Source: an uncultured Candidatus Berkelbacteria bacterium (GTDB lineage Bacteria; Patescibacteriota; UBA1384; UBA12157; JAENIV01). Taken from it: a stretch of DNA of 64,000 nucleotides. The stretch spans positions 465,830 through 529,829 of the forward strand of contig OY969116.1 in assembly GCA_963698075.1 (NCBI GenBank), in the 5' to 3' direction. Positions 4,992 through 55,545 of this stretch are shown here, in pieces (the stretch's first letter is position 1; every line of letters begins with the position of its first letter). The translations under genes and the position numbers were made by a program. The notes under the pieces were generated by a model that was not told where the DNA came from, ran no database searches, and worked only from the letters and a program-made list of their open reading frames with translations.

Positions 4992-6415
4992 TTTTCTTTT
5001 TCTATCATCTCCAAGGCTTCCTCGCGTATGGAAATTTTACCGTCCAAATAAGCTTGCTCAATTTTTGTCTTTATCTCCCCCACTTTTGGACCTGAATCAA
5101 TTTTTAAAATGTCCATAATATCCTGGCCTGTGATAAGCGTAAATTTTTTCACTTGTTGCTTTTCTTCGACGCTGGCTTCTTTTTCAAATTTTTCTTTTTT
5201 CTTTGTTGCTTCTTCATACATTGATAAATCAGCTTTCAAATCCGGACGCAAAGATGCCGCTAAATCCGCTTTAGTTAAATCTAACAATAAATCAATATGC
5301 GGGTGAGTAAACAAACGTTTTTGTTTTCGCTCACTCATCCCCCGAAAGGCATGGATGATCCGCATATGTTGGGAAATCGCCCAAACACAAGCGTCAATAA
5401 ATTCACGGGAAAATTTTAGCCGATCTAAAATCAGCCGTGCCATTTTAGCGCTTTCTTCATCGTGTTCAAAAAAAGTAATTTTACTTTTAGGATGATCGCG
5501 GAAACCTTGGGTTTGGGGTTTAGCAATATCGTGAAGCAAAACCGTCCAGGCCAATTCAACCGAAGGGTTTTCTAATTTTTCCATCGCCATTAAAGTATGA
5601 ATCCAAACATCGCCTTCGCTGTGAAATTCTGGCGGTTGAGCGACGCCGCGTAATTGAATAAGCTCGGGCAAAATCTCTTTTAGTAACCCTAACGATTCCA
5701 TTTGCATCAGCGCTTGTTCTCGCCCAGGTCCACAAATTATCGTCGAAAGTTCCTCACGAATTCTTTCAGCAGAAATTTTATTGATGTTTTTGGCTTCTTT
5801 TTTAATCGCTTCCGCCGCCTCAAAATCCAAAGCAAAACCCAAGCGATGAGTAAAACGAACGGCGCGAAGCATTCGTAGATAATCTTCGTCAATCCGCCAC
5901 TTTGGCAGGCCGACAAAACGAACAATTTTATTTTTTAAATCTTCGATGCCACCCGTAAAATCAATAATTTCCGATTTTTGGGAATCATAAAACAAAGCAT
6001 TGATCGTAAAATCGCGGCGTCGTGAATCATTTTCCGCCGAAGTGAACTCTACTCTCATGGGTCGACGATGGTCAGCCGTGCCAATATCAACGCGGAAAGT
6101 GGCAACTTCAAATTCAAAGTCGCCATTTTTGACGACAATGATGCCGAATGCTTTCCCTTGCTCGCGGTAGTTTTTAAATAATTTTTTGACCTCTTCCGGC
6201 TTGGCGGCTGTGGCAATATCAATGTCATGGGCTTCTTTTTCCAAATACAAATCACGGACAGCCCCGCCGGCAATATAGGTTTCAAAGCCAGCTTCCTGGA
6301 GTTTTTTGACAATTCCAAAAGCCGCCGCTTCTTCAGTGGTTGGCTGGCGTTTAATTTTGAATTCAATTGTCTCCATAGTAAATAAACCCACGATTAACAC
6401 CTGTGATATATCCAC
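4988..6415 (-). CDS. cca: CCA-adding tRNA nucleotidyltransferase with HD domain
   Basis: The polymerase-beta head motif GGAVRDL...DIDIAT is followed by an HD phosphohydrolase motif (LLHDIAK). Confidence 0.8.
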   Translation of the reverse strand: MDISQVLIVGLFTMETIEFKIKRQPTTEEAAAFGIVKKLQEAGFETYIAGGAVRDLYLEKEAHDIDIATAAKPEEVKKLFKNYREQGKAFGIIVVKNGDFEFEVATFRVDIGTADHRRPMRVEFTSAENDSRRRDFTINALFYDSQKSEIIDFTGGIEDLKNKIVRFVGLPKWRIDEDYLRMLRAVRFTHRLGFALDFEAAEAIKKEAKNINKISAERIREELSTIICGPGREQALMQMESLGLLKEILPELIQLRGVAQPPEFHSEGDVWIHTLMAMEKLENPSVELAWTVLLHDIAKPQTQGFRDHPKSKITFFEHDEESAKMARLILDRLKFSREFIDACVWAISQHMRIIHAFRGMSERKQKRLFTHPHIDLLLDLTKADLAASLRPDLKADLSMYEEATKKKEKFEKEASVEEKQQVKKFTLITGQDIMDILKIDSGPKVGEIKTKIEQAYLDGKISIREEALEMIEKEK

Positions 6416-6677
6416 AGGGGTTTACAAGATGATTTTAACACAAATTAACCTCATCGTCGATTATCTCTTGACTTGGAGAAGTTATCCTGCCGAAAAGCAG
6501 GAAAAGACCGCCGATTATTGACGGAGGGATTTATATATGTTATTGTTGGAATATACGCTTCATCGCGAAAGGAGGCGAGGCCTATCGCATCATACCAACA
6601 TTGTCCTACAAACCAGCAGTAAACGCAGTTTCCGCAGTAGTAGTTACCGCAGAATATCCTTGGAGGAAGAGGAGCCC

Positions 6678-6857
6678 ATGGGCGACGAATGCAAGCCGAA
6701 GGTAGTGGTCGTGACGCTGCCGAAGTGTTTGGCAGGCAGCGGAGTCAGGATCAAGTTCAGCGATTGCGCAACTGAAGCCTCGGTGTGCGTCCAGGACGTC
6801 TGCTGCGAGGCCAAGCCGGCCGCACCGGCCGCACCGGCCGCAGGCGCGACCACGTAG
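6678..6857 (+). CDS. Small cysteine-rich peptide (59 aa) in the GC-rich island
   Basis: GGAGG lies 11 nt upstream of the ATG at 6678. The product is MGDECKPKVVVVTLPKCLAGSGVRIKFSDCATEASVCVQDVCCEAKPAAPAAPAAGATT with six Cys. A strong terminator follows. Confidence 0.3.
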   Translation: MGDECKPKVVVVTLPKCLAGSGVRIKFSDCATEASVCVQDVCCEAKPAAPAAPAAGATT

Positions 6858-6886
6858 GTCGCGAGAGGCGAAGTGATCAGTCCAAG

Positions 6887-6924
6887 GGCGGGTCGACACG
6901 AGGTCGACCCGCCCCTCTTTTTTA
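6887..6924 (+). terminator. Strong rho-independent terminator
   Basis: A 12-bp GC-rich stem GGGCGGGTCGAC/GTCGACCCGCCC with loop ACGA is followed by CTCTTTTTTAT. Confidence 0.6.
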
Positions 6925-6999
6925 TATAGGACTCTTGATTTCTTTTCTTAATTTGATATAGTCTGAATATCTGATCGCACCCAGAGAGGAGCCCGAAGC

Positions 7000-8289
7000 A
7001 TGTCCTTCAAACCCAGGAATCCGCTCGACGAACTGCTCAAGCTCAGCGATCAAGAACTGCTAGAGCGCGGCATCATCACGGCTCGAGAAATCGCCCAACA
7101 ACCAGAAATGTGGCGTGATACGGCCAGAAGATTCGTAAACTTTGCCCCGGGACTTATGAATCAAGACAACACTGCAACTTACGGTCTACTTGACGTCCAT
7201 CATTATGACTGGGGTGTTCCTCAGGCGGCAAAGCTACCTCATGAGATTATCTTCACCGGCGCTGGCACTTCTCATTTCGTCGGTCTCTGCGTCATGGATG
7301 CCGTAGGCAAGGGACTTGGTCTGCGCACACTCGCCATCCCCACCACCGATATCGTCACCCATCCCGAAGATGCCTTTCGCGTTGTCTGGGGCGAAGACTG
7401 GCCAAGCATATTGGTTTCCTTTGCTCGATCCGGCAACAGTCCCGAAAGTCTGGCGGTCATCGATATTGCTTTCAAGCAATGGCATCTTTTGCGACACCTG
7501 GTAATCACCTGTAATCCGGACGGCCAACTGGCAAAACGAGTGCAAACAACATCCAAAAGCCAGGTGCTTGTCCTCCATCCGGCAACGAATGACCGGGGGT
7601 TGGCGATGACCAGTTCCTTCACCTCAATGGTCATTGCTGGCTTAGGACTTGCTTACTTACTAAAGGGAGAACCTCTTTCCCCCCGCTACTGCGCCGACGT
7701 TGCCATTGCCGCCAAAGCGGCTGAACATCTCATGCGGGAATATGCCTACTACATAGAGCAGCTCATCAATCACAATGACTTCCGGCGGGCCTGCTTCCTC
7801 GGCTCAGGTTCGCTTTACGGCGCAGCGGTGGAGTCTCATCTCAAACTCCAGGAACTGACGGACGGCCAAATCATCTGCCTGGCTGATACCTTCCTCGGCA
7901 TCCGTCACGGTCCGCGCGCCGCCATCCGCGACGACACCCTCGTCGTCTATTTCCTCTCTTCTGACCCGGCGGTCAGACGCTACGAGATGGACCTTGTCCG
8001 CCAAAACCTCGAGCAGAAAGTTGGTGCCGCCCATGTAATGGTTTGCGCCAACGATCCGGAATATGAGATCGGCAAGCTCACGACGGCCAAGGGACCATTT
8101 CGCTGGGACTTCGGTGTGCCGAAGAAAGACCAGCTTCCCGACCACATGCTTGCCCCGGTAATGACGATCGTTGGCCAACTTCTCGGTTTCTTCGCCTCGC
8201 TTAAGTACGGCTTCAAACCGGATACGCCCAGCGCGAGCGGCTCGATCAGCCGCGTTGTCGAGGGCGTGACAATCTACCCACGCGAATAG
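7000..8289 (+). CDS. SIS-domain sugar isomerase, AgaS/GlmS-C-like (putative tagatose-6-phosphate or glucosamine-6-phosphate isomerase)
   Basis: Two SIS-like segments and an N-terminal region resembling the AgaS family. The gene is about 55% GC, far above background. Confidence 0.6.
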   Translation: MSFKPRNPLDELLKLSDQELLERGIITAREIAQQPEMWRDTARRFVNFAPGLMNQDNTATYGLLDVHHYDWGVPQAAKLPHEIIFTGAGTSHFVGLCVMDAVGKGLGLRTLAIPTTDIVTHPEDAFRVVWGEDWPSILVSFARSGNSPESLAVIDIAFKQWHLLRHLVITCNPDGQLAKRVQTTSKSQVLVLHPATNDRGLAMTSSFTSMVIAGLGLAYLLKGEPLSPRYCADVAIAAKAAEHLMREYAYYIEQLINHNDFRRACFLGSGSLYGAAVESHLKLQELTDGQIICLADTFLGIRHGPRAAIRDDTLVVYFLSSDPAVRRYEMDLVRQNLEQKVGAAHVMVCANDPEYEIGKLTTAKGPFRWDFGVPKKDQLPDHMLAPVMTIVGQLLGFFASLKYGFKPDTPSASGSISRVVEGVTIYPRE

Positions 8290-14404: not shown

Positions 14405-14426
14405 AATTTAATTTCAAGTGGCTAAT

Positions 14427-14616
14427 GGTGGCAGCGGCAAGATTCGAACTTGCGACCAACGGCTTATCTCTTCTTCGAATCAGAGATATTTTGCTTGGTG
14501 CCAGCGGCAGGATTTGAACCTGCGACCTAGGGCTTATGAGTCCCTCGCTCTACCCCTGAGCTACGCTGGCAAGCAAAATGGTGAGTCCGCTGCTCTACCA
14601 CTGAGCTACGCTGCCA
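14427..14616 (-). tRNA. Split CAU tRNA gene (5' exon about 14582-14616, 3' exon about 14427-14467 with encoded CCA) interrupted by a ~115-nt insert that contains a whole tRNA-Met gene
   Basis: 5' half: GGCAGCG-TA-GCTC-AGTGGTA-GAGC-A-GCGGA-CTCA. 3' half: (A)TAA-GCCGT-TGGTC-GCAAG-TTCGAAT-CTTGC-CGCTGCC-A-CCA. Joined, they give a perfect 76-nt cloverleaf with anticodon CAT. The insert is flanked by the 10-bp inverted repeat ATTTTGCTTG/CAAGCAAAAT. Confidence 0.5.
14496..14570 (-). tRNA. tRNA-Met (anticodon CAT), intact, nested inside the split tRNA
   Basis: Reverse complement: GCCAGCG-TA-GCTC-AGGGGTA-GAGC-G-AGGGA-CTCATAA-GCCCT-AGGTC-GCAGG-TTCAAAT-CCTGC-CGCTGGC-A-CCA. Confidence 0.8.
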
Positions 14617-14663: not shown

Positions 14664-14738
14664 TGGTAGCGGGGGGCGGATTTGCACCGCCGATCTCGAG
14701 GTTATGAGCCTCGCGAGATACTACTTCTCCACCCCGCG
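14664..14738 (-). tRNA. Initiator-like tRNA-fMet (anticodon CAT) with atypical D and T loops
   Basis: Reverse complement: CGCGGGG-TG-GAGA-AGTAGTA-TCTC-G-CGAGG-CTCATAA-CCTCG-AGATC-GGCGG-TGCAAAT-CCGCC-CCCCGCT-A-CCA. It has a C1xU72 mismatch and an A11:U24 pair, both initiator hallmarks. The D loop lacks GG and the T loop is TGCAAAT. Confidence 0.65.
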
Positions 14739-14972
14739 TCGTAATATATCTTTGAGAAACTCCCTTCCGACACCACTCTTGAAATACTTCTCTTTTTTTC
14801 TAGCCTCTGTCCGCGACGAAAATTTCTCAGAATATATTAGTTTGTATGGTCTATATGCTTTTGTCGATCTATGATATCCATGCAGGTGTTCATGGAGCCT
14901 CCTCCTTATCGAATTAGTAATTCCCGTATATAAACGTTTATTATTATTCGCTAACACATAGACATAATACAT
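14721..14972 (-). CDS. GIY-YIG domain nuclease (YhbQ/URI-like, 83 aa)
   Basis: MYYVYVLANNNKRLYTGITNSIRRRLHEHLHG is the GIY-YIG motif. The last codons RGVEK-stop are encoded by the 5' end of the tRNA-fMet gene, an 18-nt overlap. Confidence 0.7.
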   Translation of the reverse strand: MYYVYVLANNNKRLYTGITNSIRRRLHEHLHGYHRSTKAYRPYKLIYSEKFSSRTEARKKEKYFKSGVGREFLKDILRRGVEK

Positions 14973-21972: not shown

Positions 21973-22244
21973 GCATCTCCTTAATTTTTTAAGCTACCAT
22001 TAAATGTGCCATAGTCCGGATTTTGTGGCCCTACCCGCCGGGCAGAGCCCCTCTGGGCGGCGCCCCTTGCGCGTAAGACCATCCTCGAGCTTGTCAGTCA
22101 AATTAGAATGTCTGCGGAAACCATAGCAGGATTCAAAAATATCAGATAATAGTGAAGGGGGCAAATGTTGTCAAGCCCACAACCCTTATGAAATTTTTAC
22201 CGCTGAAAAATTACGTTAGCTTCCCGAGAAATACTTTTTTAACC

Positions 22245-23003
22245 AGATTTATCCCACCCCTGGGGTGGGATTTCAATGGTTCAATCAATCAATAAAGCTT
22301 TGATTTTAGAAAGTTGACGCTGATAAGCGGCTCTATCAAGGACAAATTTGCGATAAGAGGATGGTTTTATCTCAAAAAGATCCGCGTATTCACAAAGCGC
22401 TTTTTCCTCTTGCCCCAAATATTCTTTATAGGATGAATAAGTCCATTCCTCGGGTTTTTTAACCAACGATGCCGAGACGGGATTGAGGTGGATGTAGCGC
22501 GTTAAATGCAGTAATTGTTCGTCGTTCTTGACTAAAATATTTTTAAACTTGGCTTCCCACAAAGGCCCTTTTCTTTTGTGTTTGGAATTAAAATATCGGG
22601 TATAACTATTTAAAATATTGCCAAAATATTTGGAGATCCCGTCGTCCTGTAATTGTTTTAAAATAAGATGAATATGGGTTGGCATAATGCAAAAAGCAAT
22701 TATCTCTACGAGGTCATCCCCATCTTTTGTAAGCGCTTCAAAATAATTATCAAAGCCCTGTTTGGCCACACCTTCAAGAATAATAAAATCGGAAAATTTT
22801 ATGTCCGTTTCCCTCTGATAAAATCTTAATAATTGACGCATCCTTTGATAATCTTGTTTATCATTAAAAATTTTGTATTCAGCGATACTTCTACTTAAAA
22901 CATGGTAAATTTCGTCATTAACTAAGGGTACTTTCCGCTTCATAATTTTATAATACATAAATCTTTAACCTTCTACAACCCACCCCAGGGGTGAGTTATG
23001 GAT
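22245..23003 (-). mobile_element. IS200/IS605-like minimal insertion sequence (Y1 HUH transposase flanked by subterminal hairpins)
   Basis: Hairpins ATCCCACC-CCTGG-GGTGGGAT (22252-22272) and CACCC-CAG-GGGTG (about 22977-22997) bracket a RAYT/TnpA-like gene. Confidence 0.55.
22281..22958 (-). CDS. Y1 HUH tyrosine transposase, IS200/RAYT-like (225 aa)
   Basis: HUH motif AFCIMPTHIHLIL and catalytic-Tyr motif TRYIHLNPV, as in IS200 TnpA and REP-associated tyrosine transposases. Confidence 0.7.
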   Translation of the reverse strand: MYYKIMKRKVPLVNDEIYHVLSRSIAEYKIFNDKQDYQRMRQLLRFYQRETDIKFSDFIILEGVAKQGFDNYFEALTKDGDDLVEIIAFCIMPTHIHLILKQLQDDGISKYFGNILNSYTRYFNSKHKRKGPLWEAKFKNILVKNDEQLLHLTRYIHLNPVSASLVKKPEEWTYSSYKEYLGQEEKALCEYADLFEIKPSSYRKFVLDRAAYQRQLSKIKALLID

Positions 23004-23081
23004 GGTTAGATTCACATTCAGTCGCGCTCGCTCGAACCTTGGAAGAAGACACTGCAGGCGTTGTAAAATGCCTTTACAAAA

Positions 23082-23197
23082 TGGGCACACCAGGACTCGA
23101 ACCTGGAACCAGTTGTGTCTAAAACCTTCACAAAAATGGGATCGGATGGATTCGAACTATCGGCAACCTCCTTATTTCAAAATGTGCAACTTAAAAA
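23082..23197 (-). pseudogene. tRNA 3'-half fragments (two T-arm/acceptor remnants)
   Basis: 23082-23136 reverse complement: TGGTT-CCAGG-TTCGAGT-CCTGG-TGTGCCC-A. 23137-23175 reverse complement: ATAA-GGAGG-TTGCC-GATAG-TTCGAAT-CCATC-CGATCCC-A. Neither fragment has a contiguous 5' half. Confidence 0.4.
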
Positions 23198-23269
23198 TGC
23201 GCACGCCTGGATTCGGACCAGGAACCGTCGCCTTATAAGAGCGATGCTCTGCCATTGAGCTACGTGCGC
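23198..23269 (-). tRNA. tRNA-Ile (anticodon TAT)
   Basis: Reverse complement: GCGCACG-TA-GCTC-AATGGCA-GAGC-A-TCGCT-CTTATAA-GGCGA-CGGTT-CCTGG-TCCGAAT-CCAGG-CGTGCGC-A. No encoded CCA. Flanked by the 12-bp inverted repeat TTTCAAAATGTG (23175-23186) / CACATTTTGAAA (23269-23280). Confidence 0.75.
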
Positions 23270-23294
23270 ACATTTTGAAAAATGTCTAACATTT

Positions 23295-23329
23295 TAAGAG
23301 AGGTGCTCTAACCACTGAGCTACATGCCC
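23295..23329 (-). pseudogene. tRNA 5'-half fragment (acceptor, D arm and anticodon stem up to the loop)
   Basis: Reverse complement: GGGCATG-TA-GCTC-AGTGGTTA-GAGC-A-CCTCT-CTTA, then the repeat-flanked tRNA-Ile follows. It pairs imperfectly with the fragment at 23137-23175 through GGAGG, giving a UAU anticodon loop. Confidence 0.4.
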
Positions 23330-23455
23330 ATCCAATATAATTCTATCTTATTCTCCCCTTGACATCAAGCTTAAAATATGATACAATATCATAATTGATC
23401 AAAATCTGAAAATAAAAATCTACCTGTTGGTAGAAAAAACAAAAGTGAGGGGCAA

Positions 23456-24934
23456 ATGAACGGTCACGCCGCCGTCTTACCGCTTCCCAAATCAGCATCG
23501 TCAGCATCCAAAACCAAAAAATTAAAAAAAACTAAAAAGAGCGCTCTTTTTATTCCCCGGAAAACCTTAATTAAACTCGGAGTTGGGTTTTTAGTTCTAG
23601 CCATGTTCTTAGGTTCCGGCCTTGGGTATGTTAAAGCCTACGATGGTAAGATTTATCCTAAAATTGTGGTTGCTGGGGTCAAAATCGGCGGCATGACCCT
23701 TGACGAGGCCAAAAATGCGGTCGAAAAAAAGGCCCAAGAGCTAAACGAAAAGGGTCCGGAAATTACCTACAATGGTCAAACCCTCACACCCAAACTAGAC
23801 GAAATGGGCGTCACTTTTAATGTCGAAGAAGCAATCCAGGCCGCCTACCAATTCGGTCGCGCCGGTAATATTTTCCAAAAAATTAAAGAAAATATAATCT
23901 TATTGGGACGTCAAAACAAGATCGAAATTACGCCCCAAATTGATGAAGAAAAATTCAACGCCTACCTTGGTCATTTGGCAAGGGTCGCCGAAAAAGAATC
24001 GGTTAATGCCGGACTTTCGATTCGTCAGGGTTTAATTTCCCTTACTTCTCCGGAGGGCGGTCGCGGTTTAGACAAAGTCAAACTTAAAGATGATTTAAAA
24101 AACTTTATTAATTCCGGTCAAAACGGCCAAATTTCCATGGTCACCTCCGACCTGGAACCAGCAGTCAAAGAAGATGGCACCACTGAAGCCCGCGCTCAAG
24201 CGGAAAAATATCTTTCAGCCGCGCCGATTAGCGTTACCTTTGAAACTAACACTTGGCAAGCAGACCGGCCGGAAATCGGCTCTTGGATTAAATTTAATGT
24301 TTCAGGCCACAAATTGGTTGCCAGTGCTGATTCTTCGGGATTCGTCAATTGGGTGGCAAAACAAGTCGAAATTCCCGCCAAAGACAAAGAAATTGAAGAT
24401 GGCACAGGCACGGTTTTAAATGAAGGCCAAGACGGCCGCGGCGCGGATACCAATACTTTAAAAAACCAAATTAAAGATGTTTTATTTTCGGGTGCAGCCA
24501 ATGCCAGTTTTGCCCTAGTAACCTTTGCCATTCCTCGCGGCCAAACGACCATTTATCCTCACGCCGAGCCTGGCCGTTATTCCGGTCGCTACATTGATAT
24601 TAATTTATCAGAACAAACTTTATATGCCTTTGAAGGCGCCAATCAGGTAAATTCCTTCTTGGTTTCCACGGGTCGAAGGGGTTATTCGACCCCAACCGGT
24701 GAATTCCACATTTATGGCAAAGATCGCTACGCCTTGATGGATGGCCCAGATTATTACCTGCCTAATGTTCCCTTTGTTAGCTGGTTTCTTGGTGACTATT
24801 CCATTCACGGCACCTATTGGCACAGCAATTTCGGCCATGTAATGTCTCACGGCTGTGTCAATGCCTCCATTGGCGATGCGGAATGGATTTTTGGCTGGGC
24901 CGACATCGGCACCCCGGTGTATATTCATTACTGA
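23456..24934 (+). CDS. L,D-transpeptidase-family protein (YkuD catalytic domain) with N-terminal membrane anchor
   Basis: C-terminal catalytic motif YWHSNFGHVMSHGCVNASIGDAEWIF. Upstream peptidoglycan-binding/VanW-like region. N-terminal TM segment. Confidence 0.7.
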   Translation: MNGHAAVLPLPKSASSASKTKKLKKTKKSALFIPRKTLIKLGVGFLVLAMFLGSGLGYVKAYDGKIYPKIVVAGVKIGGMTLDEAKNAVEKKAQELNEKGPEITYNGQTLTPKLDEMGVTFNVEEAIQAAYQFGRAGNIFQKIKENIILLGRQNKIEITPQIDEEKFNAYLGHLARVAEKESVNAGLSIRQGLISLTSPEGGRGLDKVKLKDDLKNFINSGQNGQISMVTSDLEPAVKEDGTTEARAQAEKYLSAAPISVTFETNTWQADRPEIGSWIKFNVSGHKLVASADSSGFVNWVAKQVEIPAKDKEIEDGTGTVLNEGQDGRGADTNTLKNQIKDVLFSGAANASFALVTFAIPRGQTTIYPHAEPGRYSGRYIDINLSEQTLYAFEGANQVNSFLVSTGRRGYSTPTGEFHIYGKDRYALMDGPDYYLPNVPFVSWFLGDYSIHGTYWHSNFGHVMSHGCVNASIGDAEWIFGWADIGTPVYIHY

Positions 24935-54408: not shown

Positions 54409-55545
54409 TTAATCCTCCTTGATGATATCGATTAAATAACTTGAAGGCTCTTTGCCAATGTTTTTCACTCTAATTTCTAAAATATCTTCCATTCCAACAT
54501 CAATGTCTTTACCAAAAACTTTGTAATCTATAAGAATACCTTGAGCTGGAACAATCGCCCGATTTTGCAAAATGTCACCCAGATAAACTTCGATCATTAC
54601 CGGGCCTTTGCCTTCCTTGATTTGAAGATTCATTTGATCGGGTTCGAGGATGCTTCTTCGATATTGCCATGCTTGTCCTGGGGCTAAATCTTTAATATTG
54701 ATTTGATCTAGACGATTGAAGCTGGATTCCTCGCCCAAAATTGCTGGCGATGAAGTCATGCCCGTTTCTTCTTGATAAATTATCGGCCGTTCTTGCTTGG
54801 CAACTTGGATAAACGCTTTGTGCCACTCATTGCTCATCTTGAAGCTCACAAATGACAAGCCGATGGCAAGAATGATAACCATGGCTTGAGCTAAAGTGTG
54901 GCGCCACGTCAGGGAATGGCCAGATCTTGCGGTTTGAGCTAATGACTGGTGGTTACTAATGCTATCGCCAACTGACTTGACCGACGGCTTGGTCATCAGA
55001 TACCAATATAATAGTAGTTCGAGAAGGAAGAAGAAAACCCTGGCCACGCCGGCATGAGCTAAGAATATATAGTCGGGTCCAAACTTATAAGCCATCAACA
55101 CAATAATCATCAAACGGACGATGTTGATGACATAAGTTACAACCAGACCAAAAACAATTCTTAACGCTCGCTGGCGCAAACTAAATAAAGGATAAAAAGC
55201 GATAAGACCGATTAATATGCTCGATTCCAAAATCGCCGAACACTCAATGCCAAGCTTCAGAATCGAACTGCCGCCATCGGTTAGCACAATTTGAAACCGG
55301 CCGTTGGACATCAGTTCCATTGGAATATGGAAAATATCTTTGCTGATGAGGTCGACATGGAAACTAGCCATGTTCACCAAAAGCTGGTCAAGGCCGAAAT
55401 ATTCGGCCAAAAAAACCAATTGGATCGTCAGTCCAAAAGCGGCGATTAAGTAATAGAAAAGCCACTGGCGATGTCGGCGAAACACCAGCACAAGTGTCAG
55501 CCAGATCGGGAAGATGATAATTGTGGCAAGTAAGCGTGAATCCAT
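54409..55545 (-). CDS. Exosortase/archaeosortase-family protein (XrtG-like context) with a C-terminal EpsI-like extension
   Basis: Eight TM core with a Cys motif LKLGIECSAILESS and an Arg motif NIVRLMIIV. One extra TM segment plus about 130 aa of soluble C-terminal domain. Immediately upstream of the GT2 synthase. Confidence 0.6.
   Translation of the reverse strand: MDSRLLATIIIFPIWLTLVLVFRRHRQWLFYYLIAAFGLTIQLVFLAEYFGLDQLLVNMASFHVDLISKDIFHIPMELMSNGRFQIVLTDGGSSILKLGIECSAILESSILIGLIAFYPLFSLRQRALRIVFGLVVTYVINIVRLMIIVLMAYKFGPDYIFLAHAGVARVFFFLLELLLYWYLMTKPSVKSVGDSISNHQSLAQTARSGHSLTWRHTLAQAMVIILAIGLSFVSFKMSNEWHKAFIQVAKQERPIIYQEETGMTSSPAILGEESSFNRLDQINIKDLAPGQAWQYRRSILEPDQMNLQIKEGKGPVMIEVYLGDILQNRAIVPAQGILIDYKVFGKDIDVGMEDILEIRVKNIGKEPSSYLIDIIKED

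Follow-up and report, generated by a model that had tools for sequence, protein, structure and literature searches.

The tRNA-Ile(UAU) locus at positions 23082-23368 was analyzed in a window of 64,000 nucleotides (64 kb), the whole stretch taken from contig OY969116.1 of an uncultured Candidatus Berkelbacteria bacterium. The locus is built like a Russian doll, with a complete tRNA-Ile(UAU) gene and its leader and trailer of about 10 to 25 nt lying inside an older tRNA-Ile(UAU) gene. In RNA sense, its parts follow one another in this order:

23340-23368, minus strand: promoter-like site TTGATG-17-TAGAAT, with the motif CTTGATGTCAAGGGG kept in place in relatives
23295-23329, minus strand: A5, tRNA 5' half, positions 1-35, with acceptor GGGCATG, D arm, anticodon-stem strand CCTCT and loop CTTA
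23280-23294, minus strand: small 15-nt hairpin AAATGT-TAG-ACATTT, directly 3' of A5, forming in the minimum-free-energy fold
23268-23280, minus strand: inverted repeat, 5' arm in RNA sense, TTTCAAAATGTGC, overlapping positions 1-2 of the inner tRNA
23198-23269, minus strand: inner intact tRNA-Ile(UAU), detected by ARAGORN and by Rfam RF00005 with 69.5 bits
23188-23197, minus strand: trailer TTTTTAAGTT, the spacer from the inner tRNA to the 3' repeat arm, homologous to the trailer TTTTTTAATT of the related locus L010
23175-23187, minus strand: inverted repeat, 3' arm in RNA sense, GCACATTTTGAAA, directly abutting B3
23137-23174, minus strand: B3, tRNA 3' half from position 36, its anticodon-stem strand pairing with A5 and its acceptor of the GGGATCG lineage
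23082-23136, minus strand: C3, a spacer (23124-23136) and then a second 3' half from 23123, starting in the anticodon loop

The inner gene is intact, as the initial annotation had described it, with ends called at 23197/8 and 23269/70 (ARAGORN, RF00005), the acceptor stem GCGCACG/CGTGCGC, the T loop TCCGAAT and no encoded CCA. It is the only intact copy at the locus, would be the functional gene, and lies downstream of the resident promoter, behind the orphan 5' half A5 and a 25-nt linker; its leader reads TTTCAAAATGT. The inverted repeat around it is real and perfect, but 13 bp long (23175-23187 and 23268-23280) and not 12 bp as first given. With at most one mismatch, the repeat motif occurs three times in the 64 kb (the two arms and a single-mismatch match at 55284-55296), which was reached in 0 of 100 shuffles. 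The hairpin at 23280-23294 reuses the AAAATGT/ACATTTT motif of the repeat and so resembles a "solo" hairpin beside a "loaded" one. A 441-nt region of the window locus was identical in an independent Logan assembly. The T loop of the inner gene carries C at the normally invariant U55, a feature shared by several Patescibacteria tRNA-Ile(UAU) genes (L100, L112, and L013), and the use of the UAU anticodon suggests AUA decoding without a lysidine-modified tRNA.

A5 reads GGGCATG TA GCTC AGTGGTTA GAGC A CCTCT CTTA (23329-23295, minus strand), with the CTTA end reported before. Its previously proposed partner in the anticodon stem, a 3' piece beginning ATAA-GGAGG at 23137-23175, was recovered as B3, which reads TAA GGAGG TTGCC GATAG TTCGAAT CCATC CGATCCC A (3' portion CGATCCCA). 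The joined A5 and B3 were called tRNA-Ile(tat) by ARAGORN, with an anticodon stem of 5/5 pairs, the two acceptor mismatches already noted, and one further mismatch in the T stem. The third fragment at 23082-23136 also exists, and it is more than the T arm and acceptor it had been taken for: C3 is a 3' half from the anticodon loop onward (23123), reading TTTAGAC ACAAC TGGTT CCAGG TTCGAGT CCTGG TGTGCCC A. B3 and C3, direct repeats of the tRNA 3' part, each extend from the anticodon loop to the discriminator base, followed by a T-rich trailer. The C3 acceptor strand TGTGCCC forms 7/7 pairs with the acceptor of A5, the C3 segment ACAAC TGGTT is identical in the inner tRNA of L010, and C3 is read as the putative outermost 3' half. 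The B3 acceptor strand (CGATCCC) is that of a tRNA-Ile lineage intact in L156 and L126 (GGGATCG). Because A5 matches B3 in the anticodon stem and C3 in the acceptor, and B3 belongs to the GGGATCG lineage, the window fragments are a mosaic of lineages and not the single decayed copy proposed at first. The locus was probably a two-level nest that later collapsed or recombined; in such a history, A/C3 would be the outer gene and ?/B3 the middle one, the inner gene would have come last, and the stacked 5' halves would have recombined in the conserved D arm. A T-loop-like stretch at 23030-23045 is a possible further piece of tRNA debris.

The junction lies at position 35/36 in the middle of the anticodon loop (..CTTA|AAATG ... 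TTGAAA|TAAGG, or shifted by the ambiguous A), is defined to within 1 nt, and shows no target duplication. A 7-nt TTAGACA match was considered as a target duplication and rejected, being at chance level for the region size and base composition. The promoter-like site is the sole such site on the minus strand upstream of the inner tRNA, and its motif is found at the same position in the related loci L002, L010, and L013 and with two differences in L004. It lies upstream of A5 and would drive the whole unit, with A5 as a transcribed 5' leader. The term nest is used below for this arrangement, which in the window comprises an intact tRNA between halves of the same anticodon, a junction in the anticodon loop, and a flanking inverted repeat of 13 bp.

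A second nest, with tRNA-Met(CAU), lies at 14.4 kb of the window:

14426-14615, minus strand: nested tRNA-Met(CAU), the sister locus, called by ARAGORN with introns as a tRNA-Met with a 115-nt insert
14582-14615, minus strand: outer 5' half
14571-14581, minus strand: leader
14496-14570, minus strand: inner tRNA
14467-14495, minus strand: trailer and hairpin
14426-14466, minus strand: outer 3' half

Its layout is the same as that of the tRNA-Ile locus, as had been claimed, with every outer stem intact, and its minimum-free-energy fold is a nested cloverleaf (z = -3.1). An 83-amino-acid GIY-YIG open reading frame (ORF; Pfam 3e-15) at 14721-14972 on the minus strand overlaps the 5' end of a tRNA-fMet, one gene upstream of the nested tRNA-Met. 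This ORF is missing from the syntenic L007 locus and has homologues in L077, L083, L086 (two copies), L088, and L112.

Orthologous tRNA-Ile loci were located through the divergently transcribed L,D-transpeptidase gene (23456-24934), which has many Patescibacteria orthologues in conserved synteny; a metagenome scan with a transpeptidase alignment was dominated by the generic YkuD domain and contributed only four orthologous loci. In L004 (70% amino acid identity) the locus is plain, with promoter, tRNA-Ile(UAU), and T-run. In L002/L003 (83%) the promoter is followed by a GCGCGAG.. 5' half whose D loop holds a UUCG hairpin, then by the linker TTCAAAAATGTAT and an intact tRNA-Ile of GGGCATG type with an acceptor strand identical to that of A5; the outer-type tRNA of the window is uninterrupted in L002. 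In L010, L011, and L012 (74%), three samples of identical sequence, the promoter is followed by a 5' half of GCGC type that has decayed and, after the linker TTCAAAATAGT, by a 5' half of GGGCCTG type that ends in CTT. There follow the insert, made up of CA-TTTCAAT, an intact GCGCGAG-type tRNA-Ile and then TTTTTTAATTGC-ATTGAAA-TAATATT, and a 3' half ATGC CCGCC .. CAGGCCCA, which pairs 7/7 in the acceptor with the second 5' half. The sequence 3' of this nest is the same as the downstream sequence in L002, and the two loci resemble a single site in its empty (L002) and its filled (L010) form. The window and L010 have homologous leaders, trailers, and inverted repeats around the inner gene, and both repeat arms are shorter in L010 by the same block (9 bp compared to 13 bp in the window), a concerted change.

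Partial arrangements were present in other orthologues, an intact gene followed by a 3' half starting in the anticodon loop (L007 and L159) or a 5' half followed by an intact gene (L156 and L157). The acceptor types GGGC.., GCGC.., and GGGATCG each occur as the live gene in one genome and as a fragment in another, and this alternation between live gene and debris indicates repeated replacement. Decay of the outer copy was seen as the acceptor mismatches of A5 and B3 in the window, the loss of the D-loop GG in L010, and the loss of the T arm in L131.

In L002 (about 2800-2845) and L157, a UUCG-loop hairpin occupies the D loop of the 5' half upstream of tRNA-Ile. The hairpin stems differ (ATTCC/GGAAT and GACAC/GTGTC), and the two loci have opposite orientations and transpeptidase identities of 83% and 47%; either a structured leader has been conserved here, or hairpins have entered this loop more than once. 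In L013, a 224-amino-acid ORF (2124-2798) with an N-terminal helix-turn-helix and a LAGLIDADG-like motif (LAGLFLYWGEG) lies between the conserved promoter and tRNA-Ile(UAU), with its stop codon inside the tRNA. Related ORFs adjoin tRNAs in L078, L099, and L122, and the type is a candidate free-standing homing endonuclease of tRNA operons.

The extent of nesting was surveyed in one genome per GTDB species with the 29-base pattern GTAGCTCA-N5-7-AGAGC-N18-45-GTAGCTCANNGGNAGAGC, which describes a D arm lying too near upstream of a second D arm for an ordinary tandem gene and limits the survey to tRNAs with the GTAGCTCA D arm. The pattern matched 95 stretches; 8-kb windows around each match were examined, and the first 80 loci (with organism titles) were analyzed in detail. 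In 75 of the 80, the second D arm is part of an intact tRNA. Nine of these 75 were Ro60/RtcB loci, in which a Y RNA supplies the upstream piece with its tRNA-like module, and their removal left 66 loci. The Y-RNA loci (L073, L085, L091, L093, L111, L118, L121, L125, and L134), mostly from Rhodobacterales and unrelated to nesting, carry a YrlA-type module directly upstream of tRNA-Lys, in one case tRNA-Phe.

In all 66 loci the upstream 5' half is of the same isotype as the intact inner tRNA, and in the 29 loci that retain loop positions 32-35, all of them equal those of the inner tRNA. At least 22 of the 66 are full nests with a downstream 3' half showing 6-7/7 acceptor complementarity and 5/5 pairs in the T stem; the remaining 44 have a 5' half only. 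Neither the same isotype, nor the same loop, nor matching 3' halves were demanded by the search pattern. Patescibacteria labels were carried by 16 of the 22 full nests (Berkel-, Woyke-, Wolfe-, Portnoy-, and Kerfeldbacteria, Kazan, and Saccharibacteria), and among the 22 there were also one Omnitrophota and one Micrarchaeota archaeon (L070). These taxon labels are those of the deposited metagenome-assembled genomes, and several "Gammaproteobacteria" loci carry Patescibacteria-type cassettes. Up to three nests were packed within one 8-kb locus in some cases (L092). The search for further examples proposed in the initial annotation thus yielded many, with outer pieces related to each other, and L010-L012, the 14.4 kb locus, and the full nests of the survey support its suggestion of a recurring insertion or duplication aimed at anticodon loops.

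Breakpoints cluster at 35/36, the homology of the 5' half to the inner tRNA usually ending at 33-38 and that of the 3' half resuming at 35-37, with 0-1 nt of ambiguity and without target duplication. Two families deviate: in the Phe family the break lies at 31/32 with a second, empty hairpin at 38/39, and in the Ignavibacteriota Thr family a hairpin substitutes positions 28-35. An origin of the fragments as integrase remnants was weighed against these junctions. A phage or island duplicating its attachment (att) site at a tRNA gene, followed by later deletions, would need no special cassette; stacked 3' halves starting in the anticodon loop downstream of an intact tRNA are a classic att signature, integrative elements are a general source of tRNA gene fragments (bioRxiv 10.1101/2022.07.05.498093), and in L109 a tRNA-Thr is indeed interrupted by an integrase-bearing element. 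However, no integrase or island lies between fragments and intact gene, where spacers measure 10-60 nt, and 23-60 nt in the window locus, no integrase ORF was found in the 19.5-27 kb interval, and no Xer or integrase homologue in the window. Moreover, site-specific recombination joins halves back into whole genes and cannot produce an orphan 5' half ahead of a complete one. No duplicated overlap region is present at the junctions, such an origin does not account for the inverted repeat that flanks the inner gene, and the same nest recurs across many isotypes. This origin is considered unlikely. Site-specific recombination with the anticodon loop as the overlap region was likewise rejected, the junctions not each carrying the loop.

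The insert, and not the outer gene, carries the inverted repeat. Of the 197 tRNAs in the fetched loci taken together, it is almost exclusively the nested inner ones whose leader and trailer share repeats of at least 9 nt, and these reach up to 14 nt; shuffled controls gave at most 9, and the flanks of outer genes and of other tRNAs stayed at chance level. For the latter reason, the repeat was rejected as a general pre-tRNA trait of these genomes. Within families the arms co-vary (CCCCGTTAGAAAT/ATTTCTAACGGGG, ..GATAT/ATATC.., and ..ACAAAT/ATTTGT..), and cassettes that differ in isotype and lineage are flanked by similar GC-rich termini (CCCCG..., CCGCCTGCC... / ...GGCGGGCAGG, ...CGGGG-CARG). 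Within the sampled loci these termini occur almost only at tRNA sites, which led to rejection of a genome-wide repeat as their source. A small stable hairpin often stands between the repeat and one exon, after the 5' half in the window and before the 3' half at 14.4 kb and in many loci; the hairpin core AAGCTTTGCTTTG recurs in four genomes. Dead halves also gather extra hairpins in their D or T loops (L002, L157, L095, L112, L116, and L159).

Comparison of L090 with L131 showed leader, inner tRNA, and trailer to be identical at 116 of 118 positions and the inner tRNA at 75 of 75, in a setting of flanking genes that are 74-75% identical, other tRNAs at about 91%, and an outer acceptor differing by a compensated pair. 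Higher conservation of the cassette than of its surroundings would be expected of a cassette that is young or mobile and sits in a resident gene inherited vertically.

Slippage was weighed as a second source of the pattern. At a stalled anticodon hairpin, replication slippage or template switching could give rise, independently, to two partial tandem duplications, one placing [leader + 5' half] upstream and the other [3' half + trailer] downstream, with complementarity of leader and trailer selected later. The linker equals the upstream flank in the tandem [5' half + leader] arrays of L075, L090, L107, and L130, many loci have the 5' half only, and near-identity of inner and outer gene is common, all as such duplications would leave them. 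In most nests, however, the linker and trailer are unlike the native flanks of the outer gene, which are not complementary to each other, and about one third of the loci with a 5' half also have the matching 3' half, a share far above what independent events would give. In the window lineage, the inner and outer genes come from different tRNA-Ile lineages with many compensated differences, cassettes of different isotypes share the conserved GC-rich termini, and the filled and empty sites of L010 and L002 differ by a whole cassette in one step. As a full account of nesting, paired duplication therefore appears rather improbable, these points standing against it.

An explanation at the RNA level is that the insert is intron-like and holds a tRNA, the outer halves being held together by the helix, trimmed, and ligated (e.g., by RtcB) or used as a two-piece RNA, so that one transcript gives two products. 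The outer acceptor and T stems are mostly perfect, several outer 3' ends retain an encoded CCA, the helix arms co-vary, stable hairpins (some with UUCG/UNCG loops) adjoin the junctions, the Phe-family architecture is kept across distant lineages, and the 14.4 kb unit folds as a nested cloverleaf; position 35/36 is also an intron site in Patescibacteria (PMC13011429). Against this stand the isotypes of inner and outer gene, which are always equal as splicing would not demand, and the 44 of 66 loci with a 5' half only. The outer halves decay (window, L010, and L131) and take up further hairpins in the D and T loops, and the hairpin replacing positions 28-35 in Ignavibacteriota leaves no anticodon that could be restored. 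No group I core or Rfam ribozyme was found in the window or in eight nested loci, and bulge-helix-bulge (BHB) geometry was not seen at the junctions of the window, L099, and L127 on hand inspection. Such processing is judged quite improbable, and splicing of the outer gene is unlikely in the window, though conceivable for other members of the class.

The IS200-like Y1 element noted beside the nest was re-examined as its possible cause:

22255-22993, minus strand: unit of a REP-associated tyrosine transposase (RAYT), outside the nest, with the Y1_Tnp ORF at 22281-22958 (Pfam PF01797, 3e-10)

The Y1 domain is present as had been described, and on either side of the gene stands a copy of the palindrome CACCCCWGGGGTG, the two being inverted relative to each other (22255-22267 and 22981-22993) and the only ones in 64 kb, which is the layout of a RAYT. 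Damage by this neighbour, cutting or mobilizing hairpin DNA, could be imagined, as about 90 bp separate the unit from the last fragment, HUH enzymes do not duplicate the target when they insert hairpin DNA in single-stranded form, and in L002, too, a RAYT is found close to this tRNA locus. The L002 copy, however, is 56% identical, sits across the tRNA promoter from the position in the window, and has the opposite orientation. In a tblastn search of all loci with the two RAYTs, homologues were confined to L001-L003, with none in the nested L010-L012 nor in any of the 95 survey loci, and there is no RAYT near the 14.4 kb nest. The REP palindrome, present only at the ends of its own unit, is unrelated to the cassette arms (TTTCAAAATGTGC), which are not self-complementary. 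An association of RAYTs with nests was accordingly rejected, the matches being limited to the window and its closest relatives, and with it the idea of local decay around an insertion sequence. Judged by this distribution, the self-contained RAYT is a separate lodger in a busy intergenic region and not the cause of the nest; damage by it is largely refuted and scarcely credible as an explanation. A segment of about 50 nt upstream of the RAYT appears inverted between the window and L002.

The explanation favoured here, with moderate confidence, is that a promoter-less tRNA cassette bounded by an inverted repeat was inserted at the DNA level into the apex of the cognate anticodon hairpin and replaces the gene it entered. 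Having no promoter of its own, the cassette would be transcribed from the promoter of the resident tRNA, with the old 5' half as part of a 60-nt leader. The inner tRNA would be released by RNase P and by RNase Z or exonucleases and completed by the CCA-adding enzyme, while the helix of leader and trailer would keep its folding separate from that of the similar outer halves. No longer a source of tRNA, the outer gene would drift or recombine. As to the origin, the least certain step, DNA may have been inserted at a break at the anticodon-hairpin apex of a cognate gene. The nest could then spread to intact alleles by recombination, with the outer halves as homology arms, in a homing-like and possibly nuclease-stimulated manner. 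The central position, the absence of duplication, the one-step difference between L002 and L010, the lineage swaps, and the L090/L131 comparison all fit DNA-level insertion at the apex. The constant isotype would follow if an essential, presumably single-copy target spares only inserts that bring a replacement, or if a homologous gene is copied. With regard to mobility, the comparisons of L002 (outer gene intact) with L010 and the window (outer gene split) and of L090 with L131 would fit it; polymorphism within one population and a free form were not seen.

Several observations weigh against the cassette reading. No enzyme is consistently tied to nests: RAYTs occur in 0 of the 95 survey loci, and Xer-like recombinase, GIY-YIG, LAGLIDADG-like, and PF05635 genes are each near a minority. 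No free, extrachromosomal, or phage-borne cassette was found, viral-contig scans included; these scans, made with the general pattern and two cassette termini, gave cases of a 5' half plus tRNA and neither a clean nest nor a cassette with matching arms. Inner and outer genes are near-identical in many loci (L071, L130, and L132), which local self-duplication fits equally well, and the tandem repeats of [leader + 5' half] in L075, L090, L107, and L130 indicate that replication slippage contributes to at least part of the pattern. The outer stems are mostly intact (230 of 252 acceptor pairs and 174 of 180 T-stem pairs), as a recent insertion could explain, but equally an outer RNA that still matters. 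Simple break-repair would not require the inverted repeat and the recurrent junction hairpins.

Among neighbouring genes, Xer-like recombinases, integrase, and PF05635 were rejected as shared neighbours of nests, since they accompany a minority only, partly through synteny (DivIC-Xer), and none is in the window. An Xer-like recombinase lies in conserved synteny near several nests. PF05635 genes ("23S rRNA intervening-sequence protein", Avd-like) directly precede nested tRNAs, with the strand shared, in L063 (4453-4776) and L077 (6908-7285), and occur nearby in L067, L068, and L140.

A broader reading, put forward tentatively and held somewhat doubtful, is that of a selfish or semi-selfish tRNA cassette in Patescibacteria and a few uncultivated lineages, one that would not splice out but replace the gene it breaks, borrow its promoter, become indispensable, and spread between genomes with the broken halves as homology arms. 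More remotely, for the class as a whole, retained halves that are rejoined or act as a two-piece RNA would amount to a protein-dependent bacterial tRNA splicing or split-tRNA system.

Among known systems, group I introns share with the nests the phylum and the unusual insertion point in the anticodon loop, and ARAGORN with introns labels the 14.4 kb unit an intron-containing tRNA as it does for them. The Patescibacteria tRNA introns at 35/36 are of canonical length and structure, follow a 5' exon ending in U, end in G themselves, and self-splice (PMC13011429). The group I introns listed by ARAGORN here measure 204 and 249 nt, compared to a nest insert of 115-120 nt, of which 72-75 nt are tRNA and which, unlike an intron, always duplicates the host tRNA. 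In the window the insert (120 nt, 72 nt of it tRNA) gave no core match and ends in A in either register, unlike a group I intron, and that class was rejected; other nest families end in G (CAGG| and CGAG|) but follow an exon ending in A or G. Rfam searches of the window (gathering threshold) and of eight nested loci (E ≤ 1) returned tRNAs only, with no RF00028, intron, or ribozyme.

Archaea possess disrupted tRNAs with BHB introns as well as split and permuted tRNAs (PMC3218864 and PMC4033280). Like nests, the split tRNAs of Nanoarchaeum have halves parted in the anticodon loop and joined by a helix of their flanks, and the Micrarchaeota match L070 has the same nest. Nests differ in lying in bacterial genomes, in having no BHB at the inspected junctions, and in the decaying state of their halves, which are redundant with the complete gene between them. 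An archaeal-type BHB intron was rejected for the window, L099, and L127 after registers were tried by hand, the splice points not lying in two 3-nt bulges with a 4-bp helix, and a literature search found no paper linking the candidate phyla radiation (CPR) to a tRNA splicing endonuclease.

tRNA genes are classic landing sites for mobile DNA, and integrases reportedly show a sub-location preference within them (Williams, 2002). The tRNA gene fragments left by integrative elements such as prophages and genomic islands (bioRxiv 10.1101/2022.07.05.498093) resemble nests as partial same-isoacceptor copies beside an intact gene, with anticodon-loop breakpoints and stacked 3' halves. Unlike them, nests have no integrase or kilobase-sized element, and the insert, about 120 nt long, consists of a tRNA between the arms of an inverted repeat. 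The interrupted gene stays broken, with a 5' half remaining upstream, and a duplicated crossover segment is absent.

Free-standing homing endonucleases such as SegB and SegF of phage T4 drive intron-less homing. The nests recall such systems in the small GIY-YIG and LAGLIDADG-like ORFs of tRNA operons (window 14721-14972, L013, L078, L099, L122, and L086) and in a cassette more conserved than its surroundings (L090/L131). Known intron-less homing, however, replaces its target by gene conversion and does not nest a gene within it, and most nests have no such ORF within the sampled 8 kb. REP or REPIN sequences with their RAYTs are also comparable, being hairpin units of about 100 nt with inverted arms that nest in hairpins without target duplication, but the cassette arms are unrelated to REP and not palindromes themselves, and other nests lack a RAYT.

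Full-text literature searches on nesting, Patescibacteria tRNA introns, bacterial split or permuted tRNAs, and tRNA fragments did not turn up nested tRNA genes; the only two relevant papers, on group I introns (PMC13011429) and on integration-derived fragments, do not report the nested layout. There is a substantial chance that the nest is a new kind of element and, more remotely, that it reflects a new processing pathway. Disrupted tRNA genes (intron-containing, split, and permuted) have shaped ideas on the origin of tRNA. A complete tRNA inside the anticodon loop of a tRNA of the same type would be a fourth layout of disrupted genes and a new category, and would show that single-copy tRNA genes of minimal genomes are repeatedly overwritten. 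The junction at 35/36, the bounding inverted repeat, and the GC-rich termini CCCCG...CGGGG(CARG) provide a signature for finding the enzyme by phylogenetic profiling. At the tRNA-Ile locus of the window, the inner gene was all that ARAGORN and the Rfam tRNA model called, and ARAGORN with introns gave several nests wrong isotypes; since tools see the inner gene alone or mislabel the nest, the halves can confuse tRNA counts, intron calls, and integration-site predictions in metagenome-assembled genomes.

Other arrangements of tRNA fragments were observed among the fetched loci. In L109 (Ignavibacteriae, about 6377-7631), tRNA-Thr(CGT) is split at about position 40 by an element starting with a tyrosine integrase (Pfam 1e-35), with a 5' half upstream, an ordinary integration at a tRNA family that also has hairpin-type nests. 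On phage contigs L015, L016, and L036 (also L028, L037, L038, L044, L045, and L047), a 3' half is followed by a 5' half with complementary anticodon-stem strands, in permuted-looking order, and a 92-nt tRNA-like gene with a D-loop hairpin lies directly downstream.

Near the RAYT, a conserved structured 5' leader of an fn3-domain gene was located at 21985-22135 on the minus strand (GCTATGG..CCGAGGATGGGCTTACG..GGGTAGG..CCGGACTATGGC..TTTAATGGTAGCTTAAAAA). It had no Rfam match, and it is also present in L002, L004, L007, L010, L013, and L014. RNAalifold predicted 25 pairs, 8 of them with compensatory changes, and the leader may be an undescribed cis-regulatory RNA.

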